Positions 2,459-49,391 of a stretch of 51,277 nucleotides of DNA are shown in pieces. The notes beneath the pieces are model-generated. The model was not told the origin of the DNA. It worked only from the letters and a program-made list of their open reading frames with translations, and did not search any database. The first letter of the stretch is position 1. Every line of letters starts with the position of its first letter. Where the stretch lies: IMG/VR virus record IMGVR_UViG_2851955134_000001; one strand, given 5' to 3'. This DNA comes from a virus (taxonomy: Duplodnaviria > Heunggongvirae > Uroviricota > Caudoviricetes). Position numbers and translations under genes: made by a program.

Positions 2459-3136
2459 ATGTCCATCATTTTTAATGGACACTATCGTATGAAACACCGG
2501 ACCTGGATCACTGAAGCTTTACGTCTTCACTTTGAAGAACATTTACCCCGGGTTGTGGCCGGGCGTCGCCTGGGTGTACCAAAATCAACAGTTTGCAGTA
2601 TGTTCGTGCGCTTTCGGAGAGCTGGCCTTTCGTGGCCTTTGCCCGCAGGCATGTCGGAGCAGGAACTTGATGCCTGCCTTTACGGACAATTTTCCACGGT
2701 ACCAGTCGTACGTCCTGAAAGCACCGTTATATCCGAAGCCCCCGTGGTAAAAAAACGTCCCCGGCGGCCCAACTTCCCTTATGAGTTTAAAATCGCCTTA
2801 GTGGAACAGTCACTGCAGCCCGGAGCCTGTGTGGCGCAGATCGCCCGGGAAAACGGAATCAACGATAACCTGCTCTTCAACTGGCGCCATCAATACCGGA
2901 AAGGTGGCCTGCTGCCTTCCGGAAAAAATATGCCGGCACTGCTTCCCGTGACGTTAACGCCGGAGCCGGATAATAAAATCCCGGCTCCGGCACAGGAACC
3001 AGAGCAGATAAATACACCGTCCGACAGTCTGTGTTGTGAGCTGGTTCTGCCGGCCGGAACTCTCAGGCTTAAAGGTAAACTGACGCCGGCGTTATTACAG
3101 ACACTTATCCGCGAAATAAAAGGGAGCAGCCACTGA
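2459..3136 (+). CDS. IS66-family accessory protein TnpA (start may be the internal ATG at 2489)
   Basis: First ORF of the IS; stop overlaps the tnpB start (ATGA at 3136). Confidence 0.65.
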   Translation: MSIIFNGHYRMKHRTWITEALRLHFEEHLPRVVAGRRLGVPKSTVCSMFVRFRRAGLSWPLPAGMSEQELDACLYGQFSTVPVVRPESTVISEAPVVKKRPRRPNFPYEFKIALVEQSLQPGACVAQIARENGINDNLLFNWRHQYRKGGLLPSGKNMPALLPVTLTPEPDNKIPAPAQEPEQINTPSDSLCCELVLPAGTLRLKGKLTPALLQTLIREIKGSSH

Positions 3137-3483
3137 TGATATCTCTCCCTGCAGGTTCGCGTATCTGGCTGGTTGCCGGTATCACCGATATGCGAAATGG
3201 CTTTAACGGCCTGGCCTCAAAAGTTCAGAACGTCCTGAAGGATGACCCGTTCTCCGGACACCTGTTCATCTTCCGCGGACGCCGGGGTGACCAGATAAAA
3301 GTGTTGTGGGCTGACAGTGACGGACTGTGCCTCTTCACCAAACGCCTGGAGCGGGGCCGCTTCGTCTGGCCGGTTACCCGTGACGGCAAGGTGCACCTTA
3401 CTCCGGCTCAGTTATCTATGCTTCTTGAAGGTATCAACTGGAAGCACCCGAAACGAACGGAACGCGCTGGCATTCGCATATAA
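3136..3483 (+). CDS. IS66-family TnpB (Orf2)
   Basis: 115 aa with sequence MISLPAGSRIWLVAGITDMRNGFNGL... characteristic of IS66 Orf2, as recalled. Confidence 0.85.
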   Translation: MISLPAGSRIWLVAGITDMRNGFNGLASKVQNVLKDDPFSGHLFIFRGRRGDQIKVLWADSDGLCLFTKRLERGRFVWPVTRDGKVHLTPAQLSMLLEGINWKHPKRTERAGIRI

Positions 3484-3502
3484 CCCGTTGTAAAGTGAGG
3501 AT

Positions 3503-5074
3503 ATGGACACCTCACTTGCTCATGAGAATGCCCGCCTGCGGGCACTGTTGCAGACGCAACAGGACACCATCCGCCAGATGGCGAAATACAACCGCCTGCT
3601 CTCACAGCGGGTGGCGGCTTATGCTTCCGAAATCAACCGGCTGAAGGCGCTGGTTGCGAAACTGCAACGTATGCAGTTCGGTAAAAGCTCAGAAAAACTT
3701 CGTGCAAAAACCGAACGGCAGATACAGGAAGCACAGGAGCGAATCAGCGCACTTCAGGAAGAAATGGCGGAAACGCTGGGTGAGCAATATGACCCGGTAC
3801 TGCCATCCGCCCTGCGCCAGTCTTCAGCCCGTAAACCGTTACCGGCCTCACTTCCCCGTGAAACCCGGGTTATCCGGCCGGAAGAGGAATGCTGTCCTGC
3901 CTGTGGTGGTGAACTCAGTTCTCTGGGATGTGATGTGTCAGAGCAACTGGAGCTTATCAGCAGCGCCTTTAAGGTTATCGAAACACAACGTCCGAAACTG
4001 GCCTGTTGCCGGTGCGACCATATCGTGCAGGCACCGGTGCCTTCAAAACCCATTGCACGCAGTTATGCCGGAGCGGGGCTCCTGGCCCATGTCGTCACCG
4101 GAAAATATGCAGACCATCTGCCGTTATACCGCCAGTCAGAGATATACCGCCGTCAGGGTGTGGAGCTGAGCCGTGCCACACTGGGGCGCTGGACTGGTGC
4201 CGTTGCTGAACTACTGGAGCCGCTGTATGACGTCCTGCGCCAGTATGTGCTGATGCCCGGTAAAGTCCATGCTGATGATATCCCCGTCCCGGTCCAGGAG
4301 CCGGGCAGCGGTAAAACCCGGACAGCCCGGCTGTGGGTCTACGTCCGTGATGACCGTAACGCCGGTTCACAGATGCCCCCGGCGGTCTGGTTCGCGTACA
4401 GTCCGGACCGGAAAGGTATCCATCCACAAAATCACCTGGCCGGTTACAGCGGTGTGCTTCAGGCCGATGCTTACGGTGGTTACCGGGCGTTATACGAATC
4501 CGGCAGAATAACGGAAGCCGCGTGTATGGCTCATGCCCGGAGAAAAATCCACGATGTGCATGCAAGAGCGCCCACCGACATCACCACGGAAGCCCTGCAG
4601 CGTATCGGTGAACTGTATGCCATCGAGGCAGAGGTCCGGGGCTGTTCAGCAGAACAGCGTCTGGCGGCAAGAAAAACCAGAGCCGCGCCACTGATGCAGT
4701 CACTGTATGACTGGATACAGCAACAGATGAAAACACTGTCGCGTCACTCAGATACGGCAAAAGCGTTCGCATACCTGCTGAAACAGTGGGATGCACTGAA
4801 CGTGTACTGCAGTAATGGCTGGGTGGAAATCGACAACAACATCGCAGAGAACGCCTTACGGGGAGTGGCCGTAGGCCGGAAAAACTGGCTCTTCGCGGGT
4901 TCCGACAGCGGTGGCGAACATGCGGCGGTGTTGTACTCGCTGATCGGCACATGCCGTCTGAACAATGTGGAGCCAGAAAAATGGCTGCGTTACGTTATTG
5001 AGCATATTCAGGACTGGCCGGCAAACCGGGTACGCGATCTGTTGCCCTGGAAAGTTGATCTGAGCTCTCAGTAA
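3503..5074 (+). CDS. IS66-family transposase (TnpC)
   Basis: 523 aa; N-terminal leucine-zipper-like region, CxxC zinc motif and C-terminal region typical of IS66 transposases. Confidence 0.9.
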
Positions 5075-6297: not shown

Positions 6298-9200
6298 TAC
6301 AGTCTCCCCAGTCGTACTCTTAACACATTGTTATCGTCATATACGTCGATTCGCTCGCCATTGAAAAACAGGCGGCCTGCGCCGGGCCTTCCTGAGTTAA
6401 TTTCAAGGCTGCCGTTTCTTGATAAACGCCACCCCGGACTACCGGAATGAAAATTATCTGACCGGATATCTCCCGTCACTCTGGCAAAATCCACGGTCAG
6501 TTTTTTCATGAAAACATCATTCATGAACAGCTGATCACCCTGAGCCACAAACAAAGGTGTTGTATTGCCATTTTCCGGGTTAATCATCGCAATACGATCT
6601 GCCTGCATCAGGATCTGACTCTGAATTCCGTCAGACGTATTTTCGATTCCGGCACCAATACCTGCAATATAGAGACGTCCATCCCGTGTCTGCTGCAGCT
6701 TCACAGCCCACATGCTGTTCAGGTTCCGGCGCGTGTCCTCCTGAACTTTCTGTATCTGCTCAATGCTGGCATTCCAGGATCCCAGTTTTTTATCCGTGCT
6801 CTGTGTGATCTGACTTCCCTTATCATCAACATACTGTCTGATCTGCGCTATCTGTCGGCTGTTCTCCTCCGTGCTCCTGCTTACTGTCTGCCGGATTTCG
6901 CTGCCCATCCTGTCAACTTTTCTGTCAACTTCCGCAATGGCCATTGACTGTTCAGCGCTCTTTTTCGCCACAACAGTACTTATTTGCGCACTTTTATCAT
7001 CAACATACTGCCTGACCTGCGCTATCTGTCGGCTGTTCTCCTCCGTGCTCCTGCTTACTGTCTGCCGGATTTCACTGCTCACGCTGTCAACTTTCCTGTC
7101 GACTTTCGCAATGGCCAGCGACTGTTCACCGCTCTTTTTCGCCACAACAGTACTTATTTGCGCACTTTTATCATCAACATACTGCCTGACCTGCGCTATC
7201 TGTCGGCTGTTCTCCTCCGTGCTCCTGCTTACTGTCTGCCGGATTTCACTGCTCACGCTGTCAACTTTCCTGTCGACTTTCGCAATGGCCAGCGACTGTT
7301 CACCGCTCTTTTTCGCCACCAGTTCCGTTATGCTGTTTTCAGACGCCGTGATTTTTTTCGTCACCTCTGCGATATCACGCTCCGCACGCTGCCTCACATC
7401 TTTCTCCAACTGCGTCATTTCGCGGTTAATCGCATTCTCCAGCTGCGTCATTTCGCGGTTAATCGCATTCTCCAGTTGCTCAACTTCAGTGCGCCGTGCA
7501 GAGGCATCAATGCGTTCATTGATCTCCCGTCCCAGATGCGTTTTATTTATCGCCCCCCTGAAAAAATTAAGGTAACCGGCAGGATCATTACTCGCCCGAC
7601 CGACTGCCTCCACGAATGCCGATTTACCGACAGTGTTAACACTGCGGATATAAAAGTAATAATCATGGCCAGGCTTAATATTCTGGCCGGAGACAAGCCA
7701 CTGAGTTCCGGTACCAAGATAACGGGCTGTGGTTTCAACCTGCCTGATATCGGTAATCCGCTTTTCCGAAAACCAGAACTCAAACTGCACCGTCGGATCA
7801 TAAACGGCAAGATGCGGCGTGGCGGTTATCTGAAAATAGCCCGGCGTCAGCTCAATCCGCGACGGCGCTGCCGGTGCGGCAATCCGGAACGATACCGACG
7901 CCGGGTCTCCCTGCTGCCCCCGGGCATTTACTGCCCGGACTGTCAGCCTGTAGTTCCCCGGCGCCAGCTGCCTGAAGCGGTATGTGGTTTCCGTCGTCCG
8001 GGCCGTGCTGACCAGCCGCTCACTGCCGTCATCCGCTGCCACGGTCAGGCGAAGCATGAAACTCACGCCTTTCACCACCTTCGGCGTGTCCCAGCGGGCC
8101 AGTACCTGATACTCCCCGCTGTCTGCGGTGACTTCGACAGTCAGGTGCTGCACTGCTGGCGGCGTGACACCATTCACCGTGCCGCTCTGGTCACCGTCAA
8201 AGTGTGCCCCGTTATCCACGATGCCCTCTTTTTCCGGTACATGCTGCACGGCAGTGATGGCATACGTGCCGTCGTCGTTCTCACGGATACTCACGCAGCG
8301 GAACAGGCGCTGGCGCAGCGTCGGCAGCTTCAGCCCCCACACGCTGTACTCGGCAACGCCGTCAGGAACCCGGCTCACTTTTACCTTCACGCCGTCGGTG
8401 ACGGACTGAACCTCCACGCTGACCGGATTGCCACTTCCGTCAACCAGGCTTATCAGCGTGGTACCGGAGGATGGCAGCGTGATTTCACGGTCGAGCGTCA
8501 GCGTCCGGGTCTGGCTGTTCACCGCCAGCACACGACCACCGGTGCTGATACCGGCATAGTCATCATCACAGATTTCAATGACATCGCCCGGTACATGGCG
8601 AAGCCCTTCAGCACCCACGCTGAAATCCACGGTCTGCGTCTCCAGCAGTTCTGTTTTAATCAGCCACAGCCCGGCGCGGTGTGCCTGCCCCCGGCTGGTA
8701 CAGCCAAAGGCATCCATCTTCGTGACGTTACGACCGTAACGGGCAATGGCCTGCGTATCTTCAACAAGCTCTGTCGCCGTCTCCTGGCCGTTATCCGGGT
8801 CACTCCAGTTCACCTCAACGGCATTATGGCGGTCCTTCAGGGCGCTGAAGCTGTAGCGGAACGGCGCGCCATCATCCGGCATCACCACATTACTGCGGTT
8901 ATAGGTCCACACCTTATCCGACGGTCGGTCCTGCACGAACGTCAGCGTCTGCCCGTTCCATACCGGCATACAGCGCATCGCCGAGCAGAAATCACTGAGC
9001 ACATCCCACGCCTTACGCTGTGTGGTCAGCCAGGCATTACAGGTGATGCGCGGCTCCGTGCCGCCAAAGCCGTCCGGCACTGACTGGTCGCAGTACTGGC
9101 CGATGACATACAGCGCCCATTTATCCACATCCGCTGCGCCAACACGTTTCCCCATGCCGTAGCGCGGATGGGTCAGCATATCCCACAGACACCAGGCCGG

Positions 9201-36592: not shown

Positions 36593-36748
36593 TTACTCCT
36601 CAGGTTCGTAAGCTGTGAAGACAGCGACCTCCGTCTGGCCGGTTCGGATTCGTACCTCGCAGAGGTCTTTCCTCGTTACCAGTGCCGTCACTATGACGGT
36701 TAAACAGATGACGATCAGGGCGATTAACATCGCCTTTTGCTGCTTCAT
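36593..36748 (-). CDS. hok: Hok/Gef-family type I toxin
   Basis: 51-aa MKQQKAMLIALIVICLTVIVTALVTRKDLCEVRIRTGQTEVAVFTAYEPEE recognised as Hok family. Confidence 0.85.
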   Translation of the reverse strand: MKQQKAMLIALIVICLTVIVTALVTRKDLCEVRIRTGQTEVAVFTAYEPEE

Positions 36749-36984
36749 AGCCTGCTTCTCCTTGCCTTTCGGCGCGTAAGAGGCTAACCTACGTTTGTGA
36801 AGCATAGATTGGGCCTCAGATTAATGTTAAGCGTCTTGCAGGACGCGTAATGTTAACTGGGGCTTTTATCTATCTGCCGTTGGTGTTCATGCCCGAGGCA
36901 GATAGCCTCAAGCACCCGCAGCAATTCTACTTAACTCACGTCACCTCGCCAATATAAAATCAATCAGAAAGGTGCCCCATAAAA

Positions 36985-37650
36985 TCACTCCTTCTCTTCT
37001 TTACCGTAGTGGAGTTGGCCAATTTTTATAAGAGGGCGTCCCTGAGATTTGCGGTGTAGATTGGTATCGCGCAGAGAATACACACAGCCACAATATTCCT
37101 GCTGATAGAATTTTTCGCGCTTGCTGATTTCAATCATACGGGACGAGCCGCCCTGCTTGCGCCAGTTATAATCCCAGTACACCATACCCGGATAATGCGC
37201 AACAGCTCGCCGCCCACACTCGTTAACCTGCTGCATATTTTTCCAGCGTGAAATGCCCAGTGAACTGCTGATCACACTGAAACCATTTTCAGCAGCGTAT
37301 AACGCTGTCCGCTCAAAACGCATGTCAAAACACATGGTACAACGGATCCCCCTCTCAGGCTCCCATTCCATTCCTTTGGCACGTTCAAACCAGTTGTCGG
37401 TGTCGTAATCAGCATCGATAAACGGCACGCCGTGTTGTTCAGCAAAGCGAATATTTTCATCCTTACGAATTAAATACTCTTTCTGAGGATGAATGTTCGG
37501 GTTGTAGAAAAAGATGGTGTAGTCGATTCCCGAGGCCTGAAGCGCCTCCATCACTTCACCGGAACATGGAGCACAGCAAGAGTGCAGTAGTAGTTTGTTT
37601 GCCCCGTTCGGGAGCTCCAATTTAGGCCGTTTGAAATCAGCAATAGTCAT
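36985..37650 (-). CDS. QueH-like (DUF208) putative epoxyqueuosine reductase
   Basis: [11 protein letters not shown] motif near the N-terminus plus downstream RCTMC and EYCGCVYS cysteine motifs, recalled as DUF208/QueH signatures. Confidence 0.6.
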
Positions 37651-37825
37651 AAATATTTTTATTGGGGGTCATGAAAATAGCACAGAGTGTAGCATCAGAG
37701 CAGGGCTATCGGGAATATATGTCTAAATCTGGTAATATCTGGTTTTGACGCAAAGCGGACAACCACACTAGCTCTACCCTGCGCCATGAAAATGTCAATT
37801 CACATCTGAACTAATGCTCTTTAAT

Positions 37826-38251
37826 CTAGTAAAGTCTAAAATACCTAACATTTCCTTGATAAAATGCCAGTACACGCTGCATAGCTTCGCTCTTCCGGCA
37901 CTCGCGACAGATTATATTCAGGCGCCTGTCGTAGCGGCGTATTTCTCCGTCTGGTAATGACCGGATAAGGTCAGGATCAACCACAGATGGTTTTTTCACC
38001 TTTGCCCTAGATGGTTTTTTGCGGGCATTTTGCCAGTCCTTACGAGCCTGTTCAGACGGGAATAACCCGTAACCAGAGTTGTATACATCGCCACTGGCAA
38101 CCAGCTCTCTGGCAAGAACGCTCAGCAGATATCTTGTCGCACCTGTTTTCGCTTCCAGTTGTCGTAACGTCTCGCGCCCACTCCGGCGAACCAGCTCAAC
38201 AACCTGCCCTTTAATTTTTTCCCGCTCTTCTTGTGTAAATACTTTTGCCAT
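37826..38251 (-). CDS. hypothetical phage protein
   Basis: ATG at 38251 with GGAGG RBS; 141 aa. Confidence 0.45.
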   Translation of the reverse strand: MAKVFTQEEREKIKGQVVELVRRSGRETLRQLEAKTGATRYLLSVLARELVASGDVYNSGYGLFPSEQARKDWQNARKKPSRAKVKKPSVVDPDLIRSLPDGEIRRYDRRLNIICRECRKSEAMQRVLAFYQGNVRYFRLY

Positions 38252-38266
38252 AAGCGCCTCCGACAA

Positions 38267-42616: not shown

Positions 42617-43500
42617 TAGCTAACCAACGAAGCTAAGGTTGGTAATTAAGGAGTTCTCCACGGGTGAGGTGGAGTACGTGCGCCGGACACGGGTGAGCAT
42701 CCGGCACTGACAGTTTACTGAAAGGATATTTCCCTGAAAAGTCAGACCATAACGCGAAAGCGCACGGCGAGGTAGCTGGTTCATAGATAGCCTGTCGTTA
42801 AATTTTCGTCGACCGTGCGCTTCCGGTTGTGGCAACCCGCGAAATGGTGCGGCGGTAAGTATGGCGGGGTTATTTCTTCCCCGTTGAGGACACCGGGTTG
42901 TCAGGTTGACCATGCGCCTGAGTGACAACCCCGCTGCAACGCCATCTGTTATCAATTTTCTGGTGACGTTTGGCGGTATCAGTTTTACTCCGTGACTGCT
43001 CTGCCGCCCTTTTTAAAGTGAATTTTGTGATGTGGTGAATGCGGCTGATCGCACGTGGAACAGTTAAAACCAAAAACAGTGTTATGGGTGGATTCTCTGT
43101 ATCCGGCGTTAATTGTTAACTGGTTAACGTCACCTGGAGGCACCCTGGAGGCACCAGGCACCGCATCAACAAAGTTCACTTCGGTGATGAAAGGTAAGAG
43201 AAAATGTTGAATGTAGCTATTGAAAACCAGTACGGGTGGAATTATAGTGCACCTGCACCTCATAAACCGGGTGCCGGGCGTGGAAACCCGAAGTCAAACG
43301 TAGCGCACAACCGCGCTCAGGCGGTTTTTTTATGCGTGAAGCACAGCCACATTCAGATTATGGTGGGGCGTGCAGGGCAGCCGCAAGGCTGGCCGGGTTC
43401 TACGTTGACCGGTATTTCCACCCCTGTACGTCTCACCACCATTATGGTCGTGGAAAGCCTCGGTGGTGAGTTATCAATACTCAACGTGGAGGCTGCCATT
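42617..43500 (+). other. ~880-bp ORF-free, hairpin-rich segment inside the early-left operon (candidate structured RNA / regulatory leader)
   Basis: No plus-strand ORF of 60 aa or more; multiple stable stems, e.g. gggttgtca...tgacaaccc, gcgcacgg...ccgtgcgc, cgggg-ttatttctt-ccccg. Confidence 0.4.
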
Positions 43501-44055
43501 ATGGCTACTACCCTTACCCTTTCTCACCCTGACGTAACCATTGAAAATGGTCGCGCTGTCACTACGTCTGTTGCGATCGCGGAATTCTTTGGCAAGCGTC
43601 ACGACAATGTTATCCAAAAAATAAAATTACTGGACTGCTCCGCTGAGTTCACTGCCCTTAATTTTAAGGCGAGCGAATACACCGACTCAACAGGACGCAA
43701 ACTCCCTATGTACCAAATCACCAAAAACGGCTTCGTTTTCCTTGTGATGGGCTTCACGGGCAAAAAGGCCGCTGCATTCAAGGAAGCCTACATTGCCGAG
43801 TTCGACCGCATGGAGGAAGAACTGCGCCGGAATAACACCACACCCGCTGACAAAATAATCCCGGGTGATGGCCGCACCCTGGTTATCCGCTTCGACGAAC
43901 ACGGCTACATCAAATTCACCGAAACCGTTCCTGATGGCGCACTGGTCTGTACTCTGGATACTTTCCGTTTTTATCTGGAAAAGCAGGGATGGACTCTCAT
44001 AAACCGGGGCGCAATTAAAAATATGACCGTCGAGCAGTTGCTGAGTATTAAATAG
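43501..44055 (+). CDS. Rha-family phage regulatory protein
   Basis: ATG at 43501 with GTGGAGG RBS; motif ENGRAVTTSVAIAEFFGKRHDNVIQKI typical of Rha N-terminal domain. Confidence 0.65.
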   Translation: MATTLTLSHPDVTIENGRAVTTSVAIAEFFGKRHDNVIQKIKLLDCSAEFTALNFKASEYTDSTGRKLPMYQITKNGFVFLVMGFTGKKAAAFKEAYIAEFDRMEEELRRNNTTPADKIIPGDGRTLVIRFDEHGYIKFTETVPDGALVCTLDTFRFYLEKQGWTLINRGAIKNMTVEQLLSIK

Positions 44056-46953: not shown

Positions 46954-47157
46954 ATGAGCAGCTTATTTTTAACCGAAGATGAATTGCTAATATTAACGGG
47001 CTGCAAATATGCAAGCCACCAGCGAAAATGGTTAATGGAAAACGGGCTTCCGTTCTATACCAATCGTAGTGGCAAACCGATTGTCAGCCGGGATCTATTT
47101 ACCTGCAATAAAACTTTACCACCACGCGAGGTAGAGCCGAATTTTGGTGCGATCTGA
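46954..47157 (+). CDS. excisionase-like protein
   Basis: 67 aa; stop overlaps the int start (TGATG); immediately upstream of int. Confidence 0.55.
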   Translation: MSSLFLTEDELLILTGCKYASHQRKWLMENGLPFYTNRSGKPIVSRDLFTCNKTLPPREVEPNFGAI

Positions 47158-48182
47158 TGGGAAGACGAAGGAAAAATCCTGAACACGAAAAATTACCTCC
47201 AAATGTATACCCAAATAAATATAGTTATGTATGGAAACCAACATCCAGAGAATCTGTAACACTAACCGCCATCAAGGATGGTTTAGCTGCTTTATGGAAA
47301 AAGTATGAGGAAACTGTAAATAATCGCGATCGTGCAATGACATTCGGTCGCTTGTGGGAAAAATTCCTCGCCAGCGCCTGTTACAGTGACCTTAGTCCAA
47401 GAACACAAAAAGATTATCTGCAACATCAAAAAAAGTTGCTTGCCGTATTCGGTAAGGTACCAGCGGATTCCATAAAACCAGAACACATCCGTCGATACAT
47501 GGACAAAAGAGGGGAACAGAGTAAAACGCAAGCCAACCATGAAAAAAGCAGTATGTCCCGTGTTTACAGTTGGGGGTATGAGCGAGGGTACGTGAAGGCT
47601 AACCCATGTGCAGGTGTAAGTAAATTCAAGGCCAAAAACCGCGAACGATATGTAACCGACAAAGAATACCAGGCAGTATTAAGCGTGGCACCCCTTCCTG
47701 TTTTTATCGCAATGGAAATTGCCTATCTGTGTGCAGCGAGGGTTTCCGATGTGTTATCGCTGAAATGGGAGCAGATTGGAAACGACGGGATCTTTATCCA
47801 GCAAGGGAAAACAGGGAAAAAACAGATAAAAGCATGGAGTCCACGATTACAGGCAGCGGTCGAAAAAGCAAAACAGTTACCAAAATCCGCCTATGTGATC
47901 AGCAATCAATACGGCAACCGATATATGTACAAAGGCTTTAACGAAATGTGGGTAGAAGCAAGAAATCGCGCAGGCAAAGTTTCAGGTATTTTAACCGACT
48001 TCACCTTTCATGATCTGAAGGCGAAAGGAATTTCAGACTATGAAGGAAGCAGCCGGGATAAGCAACTTTTCTCTGGTCACAAAACCGAAGGGCAAGTGCT
48101 AATCTATGACCGGAAGGTTAAAGTTTCACCAACACTTGATGTCCCGTTACCTGAAAATATTCCAAGAAAATATTCCAAGTAA
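47157..48182 (+). CDS. tyrosine integrase (lambda Int-like)
   Basis: N-terminus MGRRRKNPEHEKLPPNVY like lambda Int MGRRRSHERRDLPPNLY; C-terminal ...FHDLKAKG... and LIYDRK Tyr region; adjacent to a tRNA. Confidence 0.85.
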   Translation: MGRRRKNPEHEKLPPNVYPNKYSYVWKPTSRESVTLTAIKDGLAALWKKYEETVNNRDRAMTFGRLWEKFLASACYSDLSPRTQKDYLQHQKKLLAVFGKVPADSIKPEHIRRYMDKRGEQSKTQANHEKSSMSRVYSWGYERGYVKANPCAGVSKFKAKNRERYVTDKEYQAVLSVAPLPVFIAMEIAYLCAARVSDVLSLKWEQIGNDGIFIQQGKTGKKQIKAWSPRLQAAVEKAKQLPKSAYVISNQYGNRYMYKGFNEMWVEARNRAGKVSGILTDFTFHDLKAKGISDYEGSSRDKQLFSGHKTEGQVLIYDRKVKVSPTLDVPLPENIPRKYSK

Positions 48183-48234
48183 TTCCAAGTGTGATTTTTG
48201 TCACTGACTTAATGATGTATAAGTGATTGAATTT

Positions 48235-48324
48235 TGGCGGAGAGAGGGGGATTTGAACCCCCGGTGGAGTTGCCCCCACTCCGGTTTTCGAGACCGGTCC
48301 GTTCAGCCGCTCCGGCATCTCTCC
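48235..48324 (-). tRNA. serU: tRNA-Ser (anticodon CGA)
   Basis: Reverse complement reads GGAGAGATGCCGGAGCGGCTGAACGGACCGGTCTCGAAAACCGG...GGTTCAAATCCCCCTCTCTCCGCCA with long variable arm and CGA anticodon; K-12 serU neighbours mtfA. Confidence 0.9.
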
Positions 48325-49315: not shown

Positions 49316-49391
49316 TCCTCTGTAGTTCAGTCGGTAGAACGGCGGACTGTTAATCCGTATGTCACTGGTTCGAGTCCAGTCAGAGGAGCCA
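49316..49391 (+). tRNA. asnT: tRNA-Asn (anticodon GTT)
   Basis: TCCTCTGTAGTTCAGTCGGTAGAACGGCGGACTGTTAATCCGT...GGTTCGAGTCCAGTCAGAGGAGCCA, 76 nt. Confidence 0.9.

Follow-up and report, generated by a model that had tools for sequence, protein, structure and literature searches.

Phage-borne QueH, a predicted cobalamin-independent epoxyqueuosine reductase, as probable optional cargo of lambdoid prophages in Escherichia coli

Why should a prophage of Escherichia coli, a species that normally completes queuosine with QueG, carry a gene for a second enzyme of the same step? The question is raised by an open reading frame at positions 36985..37650, minus strand, of the IMG/VR virus record IMGVR_UViG_2851955134_000001, a stretch of 51,277 nucleotides that we call the window and whose numbering we use throughout. 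A sequence-only reading of the window had described the frame as a QueH-like (DUF208) putative epoxyqueuosine reductase encoded as a prophage moron and had suggested phage manipulation of tRNA queuosine or a 7-deazaguanine-related function. The identification itself is ordinary and not new, the RefSeq name, the family, its structure and its role being already known; new is that the member is phage-borne. Our main reading, to which we assign a probability of roughly three in four, is that the gene encodes a functional cobalamin-independent QueH that was captured by a lambdoid phage and is carried as optional cargo.

An intact member of the QueH family

The frame has exactly the coordinates first given for it, opens with an ATG and encodes 221 amino acids; the reading frame, Pfam and PDB matches and a structural model all point to a predicted iron–sulfur, cobalamin-independent tRNA epoxyqueuosine(34) reductase. 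The profile search that had been proposed as a check on DUF208/QueH membership gave a significant match, with Pfam PF02677 (QueH) aligning over profile positions 1-174 of 175 at 221.6 bits and an E-value of 9.6e-66, far above the curated cut-off of 23.5 bits. The CCAPC motif and the additional cysteine pairs on which the first identification rested are all present, as H23-S-C25-C26-A-P-C29, C104-T-M-C107 and C187-G-C189. An exhaustive HMMER search found 4775 QueH relatives among 1.84 billion cluster representatives, and in an alignment of 37 diverse full-length members and the Thermotoga maritima sequence, with 33-86% identity to the query, the prophage protein keeps every invariant column: C25, C26, N52, E58, Y59, R62, E99, R103, C104, C107, K137, Q184, C187, G188, C189 and S192. 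With 38-39 diverse members aligned (35-86% identity), the totals come to 16-18 invariant columns and six or seven cysteines, all kept; no variation is seen at six of the cysteines (C25, C26, C104, C107, C187 and C189) and almost none at C29, whose column holds Cys throughout the alignment except in T. maritima (Asp13). The catalytic residues are thus intact.

The same picture emerges from the fold. An AlphaFold2 model of the prophage protein, built on that alignment, reached a mean pLDDT of 95.4 and a pTM of 0.91, and its best five PDB matches in Foldseek are all T. maritima QueH, at target-normalised TM-scores of 0.90-0.92 and rmsd of 1.2-2.0 Å. Among the five are entry 7lc5 (target-normalised TM 0.92, rmsd 1.2 Å), the complex with queuosine (9deu) and mutants C9S and D13N, changed at equivalent cysteine/ligand positions; the next matches, to other Fe–S tRNA enzymes of the adenine-nucleotide-alpha-hydrolase fold such as TtuA, are far weaker. 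At the sequence level, phmmer relates 7lc5 to the prophage protein with an E-value of 7.6e-22. The T. maritima enzyme (7lc5, 7lc7, 9deu) and the prophage protein thus have in common a full-length profile match, the fold and the invariant residues, cysteines as well as polar ones, but only ~30-33% identity, and validated QueH enzymes are in general distant from the prophage protein and its close enterobacterial orthologs. They also differ in that the prophage protein has Cys29, the family norm, where T. maritima has Asp13, and in a basic C-terminal tail of ~25 residues that the prophage protein shares with gammaproteobacterial orthologs. Judged by sequence, invariant residues and modelled fold, the product genuinely belongs to the QueH/DUF208 family, as had been claimed.

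The QueH family (COG1636, PF02677), said to have been defined by Zallot et al. in 2017, and the prophage protein are predicted to catalyse the same reaction, the conversion of oQ34 to Q34 without cobalamin. According to what Li et al. reportedly found in 2021, the CC and CxxC cysteines hold a [4Fe-4S] cluster, and the third N-terminal ligand and the CxC pair hold an adjacent iron. Carried over to the prophage protein, C25, C26, C104 and C107 would bind the cluster, and C29, C187 and C189 would form the iron site beside it.

The start of the gene shows some variation. A poly-C tract 5' of the start codon (37664-37672, minus strand) has five residues in the window (CCCCC) but four (CCCC) in the copy of O157:H7. 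The upstream ATG at 37672-37670 is out of frame in the window and opens an 11-codon ORF that overlaps the queH start; in the copy of O157 and in the HannyBb/ST866-type leader (21 nt, no C run), the same ATG is in frame. In frame, it would add seven residues, and the longer coding sequence is the one annotated in the HannyBb record; the orthologs favour the shorter start.

The public databases treat the protein unevenly. In roughly a thousand genomes, RefSeq lists the identical protein, WP_000150294.1, as 'epoxyqueuosine reductase QueH', yet the NCBIfam HMM library gave no match to it, and the RefSeq name must therefore come from another rule. In PHROGs, the protein is covered by phrog_3217 (E 1.7e-138) with the label 'unknown function', and in the 45-kb genome of Escherichia phage HannyBb, an isolated phage with queH in the same position, the gene is annotated as 'hypothetical protein'; there is, in other words, an annotation gap for QueH in phage resources. 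A 2019 survey of 7-deazaguanines in viruses found no homologs of QueA, QueG or QueH in the viruses that it analysed (PMC6884629), and a search of the full-text literature found no account of QueH on temperate coliphages or E. coli prophages; PMC5495094 and PMC8884141 may mention such copies.

A variable slot in a lambdoid prophage

The claimed prophage setting was confirmed by the annotated gene content: about 1-48200 of the window is a lambdoid prophage. Both queH and DUF977 match NZ_CP029741.1 (E. coli AR_0085) at 100% identity, and in this record the ORF coordinates coincide at window position + 151841 and the 48-kb prophage is integrated at tRNA-Ser(CGA), next to mtfA. The tRNA-Ser(CGA) gene at the prophage edge (48235-48324) is the likely attachment site. 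About 1 kb off, in host DNA, lies a gene for tRNA-Asn(GUU) (49316-49391); tRNA-Asn receives queuosine, and the proximity is probably a coincidence.

From the right end, the prophage reads integrase (frameshifted), exonuclease, kil, Rha, DicF and ydfABC, followed by repressor/cro, YdaT, an O-like protein (DUF1376), P, DUF1627, DUF977 and queH; then come hok/sok, a lipoprotein, DUF968, RusA and antiterminator Q and, leftmost, a DNA methyltransferase, lysis genes, iss/bor, IS5, terminase, head, tail and IS66. The prophage looks defective: an IS66-family ISCro1 sits in the tail-fibre region (2459-5074), an IS5-like ISKpn26 separates the lysis and terminase modules (26464-27444), and the annotation gives the integrase (47157-48207) a frameshift; queH, even so, is intact. 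An Rfam cluster of small RNAs on the plus strand (42958-43443) comprises DicF (42958-43009), isrK (43255-43331) and C4 antisense RNA (43356-43443). The latter two overlap the Rha-family coding sequence as annotated (43204..44055), lying within its 5' part; the start of that sequence may be over-extended, or the region may serve to control an antirepressor of the c4/ant type.

The slot that holds queH has well-defined limits. Upstream, and outside the queH unit, it ends at the DUF977 gene (37826..38266, minus strand; Pfam PF06163). Downstream, it ends at a hok/sok (hokD/mok) type I toxin–antitoxin locus (36593..36984, minus strand), delimited from Rfam, ORF and RefSeq hokD evidence and flank alignment, which starts directly past the queH stop codon and contains an Rfam match to sok (RF01794; 36743-36917, 111 bits) and the Mok/Hok ORF (36593..36805). 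In O157:H7 strain Z1768, an NgoMIV-family restriction-modification system stands in place of the hok coding part, and the 5' part of the locus is kept. QueH, DUF977, the lipoprotein and DUF968 gave no match to the PADLOC defence families, and with this the idea of QueH as part of a known defence system was ruled out.

The order DUF977-queH-hok/sok-DUF968-(RusA)-Q recurs in O157:H7, ST131 and ST866 and in phage HannyBb, whereas the Qin prophage of K-12 lacks queH and has relBE-ydfV-flxA in the slot. In other prophages, DUF977 is followed by a BCCT transporter with a DUF2254 protein, by an AbiH-containing set with IS4 or by a DUF4209 protein. Among 5426 complete E. coli genomes, DUF977 was found at 7138 places in 4129 of them and queH at 1017 places in 995. 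Given the different fillings of the slot and the many more places of DUF977, we take the slot for a hot spot and queH for one of its optional cargos.

What moves appears to be more than the coding sequence. The 5' intergenic region (37651..37825, minus strand) travels with queH, as seen from the homology between alleles and from the IMG/VR loci. Across 80 IMG/VR prophage loci, queH and this 175-nt region are 97-100% identical, the intergenic region by itself reaching this level in 78 of the 80; at the same loci, the flanking genes are more diverged, DUF977 at 71-95% and DUF968 at 80-94% identity. Since the cassette is better conserved than its flanks, gene and leader behave as one unit that has spread across phage backgrounds. 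Two diverged alleles, the window type and the HannyBb/ST866 type, are ~94% identical in DNA; their homology begins ~115 nt 5' of the ATG, such that the proximal ~115 nt of the leader (37651-37765) are common to both, and the genes further upstream differ. Relatives are encoded on 215 IMG/VR viral contigs; the records labelled 'phage' that contain distant QueH homologs were mostly not counted as phage carriage, being short metagenomic pieces without annotation or oversized entries.

Whether the gene deserves the name of moron, as had been proposed, has a mixed answer. The term fits by position only: queH lies in a variable cargo slot, travels with a 5' intergenic region of its own and, like morons, is present in some related prophages only. 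Phage morons and auxiliary metabolic genes such as bor/iss, lom and the nin-region cargo are likewise host-derived, non-essential and placed in a variable slot between conserved modules; the prophage itself holds such a comparator, an Iss/Bor-family serum-survival lipoprotein gene (29437-29730, plus strand) beside the lysis cassette, a classic lambdoid moron. A classic moron, however, comes with a promoter and a terminator of its own and is often atypical in base composition, and none of these features is demonstrated for queH. No minus-strand consensus sigma-70 promoter was found 5' of queH in a scan with a 9 of 12 rule, no terminator-like site lies between queH and hok/sok, and the base composition is unremarkable, with a GC content of 0.47-0.49 in queH and 0.40-0.59 in the neighbours. 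Read by eye, two tandem extended -10-like motifs of the pattern TGnTAnnnT (37674..37694, minus strand), TGcTACACT (37694-37686) and TGcTATTTT (37682-37674), are candidate promoter elements; they are conserved in both alleles and are suggestive only. A TTGACA at 37798-37793, also found by eye, is accompanied by a poor -10. By default, queH would be transcribed with the delayed-early PR operon upon induction, and possibly only so.

Related to this, we considered a structured leader or riboswitch. An Rfam scan of the leader gave no match at gathering or E<=1 thresholds, cobalamin and preQ1 riboswitches included, and the fold of the leader RNA, with a z-score of +0.89, is no better than that of shuffled sequences; the candidate was discarded on these grounds. 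Rfam found no riboswitch upstream of four chromosomal queH orthologs either. With no B12 or preQ1 riboswitch here or there, nothing links the regulation of queH to cobalamin.

Capture of a host gene

The relatives of the prophage gene point to a host origin. Among the best 120 matches listed from a search of 5.8 billion proteins, all carry PF02677, every one with a functional name is called QueH, and the identities are 77-90%, apart from one partial match at 100%; the genera represented include Erwinia, Providencia, Proteus, Photorhabdus, Gibbsiella, Sodalis, Rahnella, Dickeya and Arsenophonus, and Pseudomonas cerasi also appears. The nearest relatives, at 84-90% identity, are housekeeping genes, namely the chromosomal queH of Providencia, Erwinia and others. 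In Providencia, the gene is found in the context maeB..dapE..tmcA..queH..purC-bamC-dapA and in Erwinia in purL-glmY-queH-glrK-glrR-glnB, and two more ortholog contexts that we inspected are likewise non-phage. Erwinia thus has its chromosomal queH between the sRNA gene glmY and glrK; E. coli presumably has the purL-glmY-glrK neighbourhood without queH. As the closest relatives sit in core-chromosome contexts, we class the prophage gene as an auxiliary metabolic gene, a housekeeping gene that a phage took over from a host.

The chromosomal queH of Enterobacterales and other gammaproteobacteria resembles the prophage gene over its full length, with 79-90% amino acid identity and the same N- and C-termini, but stands in conserved core neighbourhoods, while the prophage copy is part of a lambdoid prophage and has a non-homologous leader; the solved T. 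maritima enzyme, too, is chromosomal and not phage-encoded. The DNA similarity to chromosomal queH, 75-81%, is confined to the coding sequence, and compared with the chromosomal promoter regions, homology of the leader ends within 4-12 nt of the ATG. Capture of a native chromosomal queH promoter is accordingly not supported. The leader being common to both phage alleles and absent at the chromosomal orthologs, the alleles most likely diverged after a single capture, in the phage context. In principle, part of the divergence could pre-date the capture; the shared 5' leader and the shared insertion site argue for a single one.

The close kinship with housekeeping enzymes also bears on the substrate. 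Phages are known to place 7-deazaguanine bases in their DNA (PMC6884629), the prophage has DNA methyltransferases and, in O157:H7, queH adjoins a restriction-modification system, all of which would suit an enzyme that acts not on tRNA oQ34 but on a 7-deazaguanine or epoxide base in phage DNA, with a role in DNA modification or anti-restriction. The phage 7-deazaguanine clusters (DpdA with FolE, QueD, QueE and QueC; phages 9g and CAjan) likewise draw on queuosine-pathway enzymology, but their defining genes are missing here: in the 48-kb prophage, searched through its RefSeq annotation and Pfam scans of unnamed ORFs, there is no tgt/dpdA, folE or queC/D/E/F. The 7-deazaguanine-related function offered by the first reading thus finds no support in its own linked-gene check, and neither does a role in 7-deazaguanine DNA modification. 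We know of no QueA-like enzyme that adds epoxycyclopentanediol to DNA, the prophage protein is 84-90% identical to QueH of the housekeeping tRNA pathway with no phage-specific changes at the invariant sites, and a PADLOC match is absent. We consider a DNA substrate scarcely credible.

Redundancy, selection and the likely role of the cargo

If tRNA oQ34 is the substrate, the prophage enzyme duplicates one that its host already has. The claim that E. coli normally uses QueG is fully borne out, a full-length queG being found with the K-12 query in all 5426 complete genomes; the prophage queH is therefore always redundant. The two genes occur together in 995 E. coli genomes (~18%), and the coexistence with queG in every host genome is a further difference from chromosomal queH. 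QueG (YjeS) has the same predicted reaction and substrate as QueH but depends on cobalamin and two [4Fe-4S] clusters and has an unrelated fold. QueH has been described as a cobalamin-independent replacement for QueG (PMC5615194, PMC6461909), and Staphylococcus aureus carries both enzymes, differently expressed (PMC13443448).

A rival reading is that of a passenger, an enzyme that is biochemically competent but selectively irrelevant, of no benefit to phage or host, whose cassette hitch-hikes in a recombination-prone slot while QueG suffices. Universal queG agrees with this, as do the low share of DUF977-type prophage copies that have queH (~14% only), the many unrelated cargos that the slot takes, the decay of the prophage itself (frameshifted integrase, IS insertions) and the lack of a regulatory link to B12 in the Rfam scan. 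The pattern of variation speaks against it. Between the window-type and HannyBb/ST866-type alleles, phage-borne both and with a phage-specific leader, dS is 0.31-0.33 and dN 0.013, for a dN/dS of ~0.04. Among 84 copies sampled from 80 IMG/VR prophage loci, from phage HannyBb and from three complete E. coli genomes, 83 are full-length and gap-free, and all 83 of these are intact; they fall into 16 DNA alleles but only four proteins, with 46 synonymous polymorphic positions against eight amino-acid-changing codons. The greater conservation of the cassette (97-100%) than of its flanks (71-95%) suggests, moreover, preferential spread or retention. The phage-borne queH is under strong purifying selection, and with the neutral passenger disfavoured by these data, we take it to be an unlikely explanation.

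We return to a functional, captured QueH. Under this reading, a lambdoid phage would have taken queH from the chromosome of another gammaproteobacterium and carried it between its replication module (O/P, DUF1627, DUF977) and hok/sok-DUF968-RusA-Q. E. coli does not synthesize B12 de novo and has to import it, via BtuB, and when grown without B12, it reportedly has oQ in place of Q (Frey et al. 1988). As QueG needs B12 and the host cannot make it, the likely effect of the prophage gene is a B12-independent final step of queuosine synthesis. The host's Tgt and QueA would supply oQ34 on tRNA-Asp, -Asn, -His and -Tyr, and the Fe–S/Fe centre of QueH would then, by a reduction that needs no cobalamin, turn the epoxide of oQ34 into the cyclopentene of Q, such that, in the lysogen or during lytic growth, the last step would be freed from the cobalamin supply. 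The Tgt/QueA substrate pathway is established in E. coli (PMC5372724), and as far as the passage in PMC11406385 that cites Miles 2011 goes, an E. coli queuosine-pathway mutant accumulates oQ.

What the phage gains is a matter of conjecture, and independence from B12 may be the benefit that is selected. In E. coli, oQ and Q are not known to differ in phenotype. A more specific version is lysogenic conversion of the tRNA epitranscriptome, in which the lysogen would express queH from the gene's own leader and complete queuosine independently of cobalamin; we hold this to be possible but doubtful. If true, QueH lysogens would keep full Q34 under B12 starvation or after a protective loss of btuB, BtuB being also a receptor for phages and E colicins, and it would be explained why ~18% of E. 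coli keep queH under purifying selection despite a universal queG.

Pure speculation, and in our view very improbable, is a role in conflict, in which the phage, through the Q34 state of tRNAs with GUN anticodons, would tune how its own NAU/NAC codons are decoded, or the lysogen would tolerate a loss of BtuB and still keep Q, or the sensitivity to anticodon nucleases, of which colicin E5 is one, would change. The signs in its favour are circumstantial: elsewhere, the slot holds relBE, AbiH, a restriction-modification system and hok/sok, and in a preprint on Shewanella, Q status is reportedly linked to phage resistance. Weighing against it, QueH has neither a PADLOC match nor partner genes, and nothing indicates that decoding or nuclease sensitivity changes between oQ and Q.

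A functional QueH as optional cargo thus remains the reading that we prefer, and its implications depend on the enzyme being active. If it is, a temperate coliphage carries a tRNA-modification enzyme that does the work of a host enzyme with a different cofactor, comparable to the pairing of MetE and MetH; PHROG 3217 gains a function; and the published impression of viruses devoid of QueA, QueG and QueH (PMC6884629) is corrected. About one in five E. coli, O157:H7 and ST131 included, would provide a natural system for asking whether the step from oQ to Q matters physiologically. The E. coli strains used in queuosine work, finally, may carry a second reductase, which would affect how the phenotypes of ΔqueG mutants and the effects of B12 are read.
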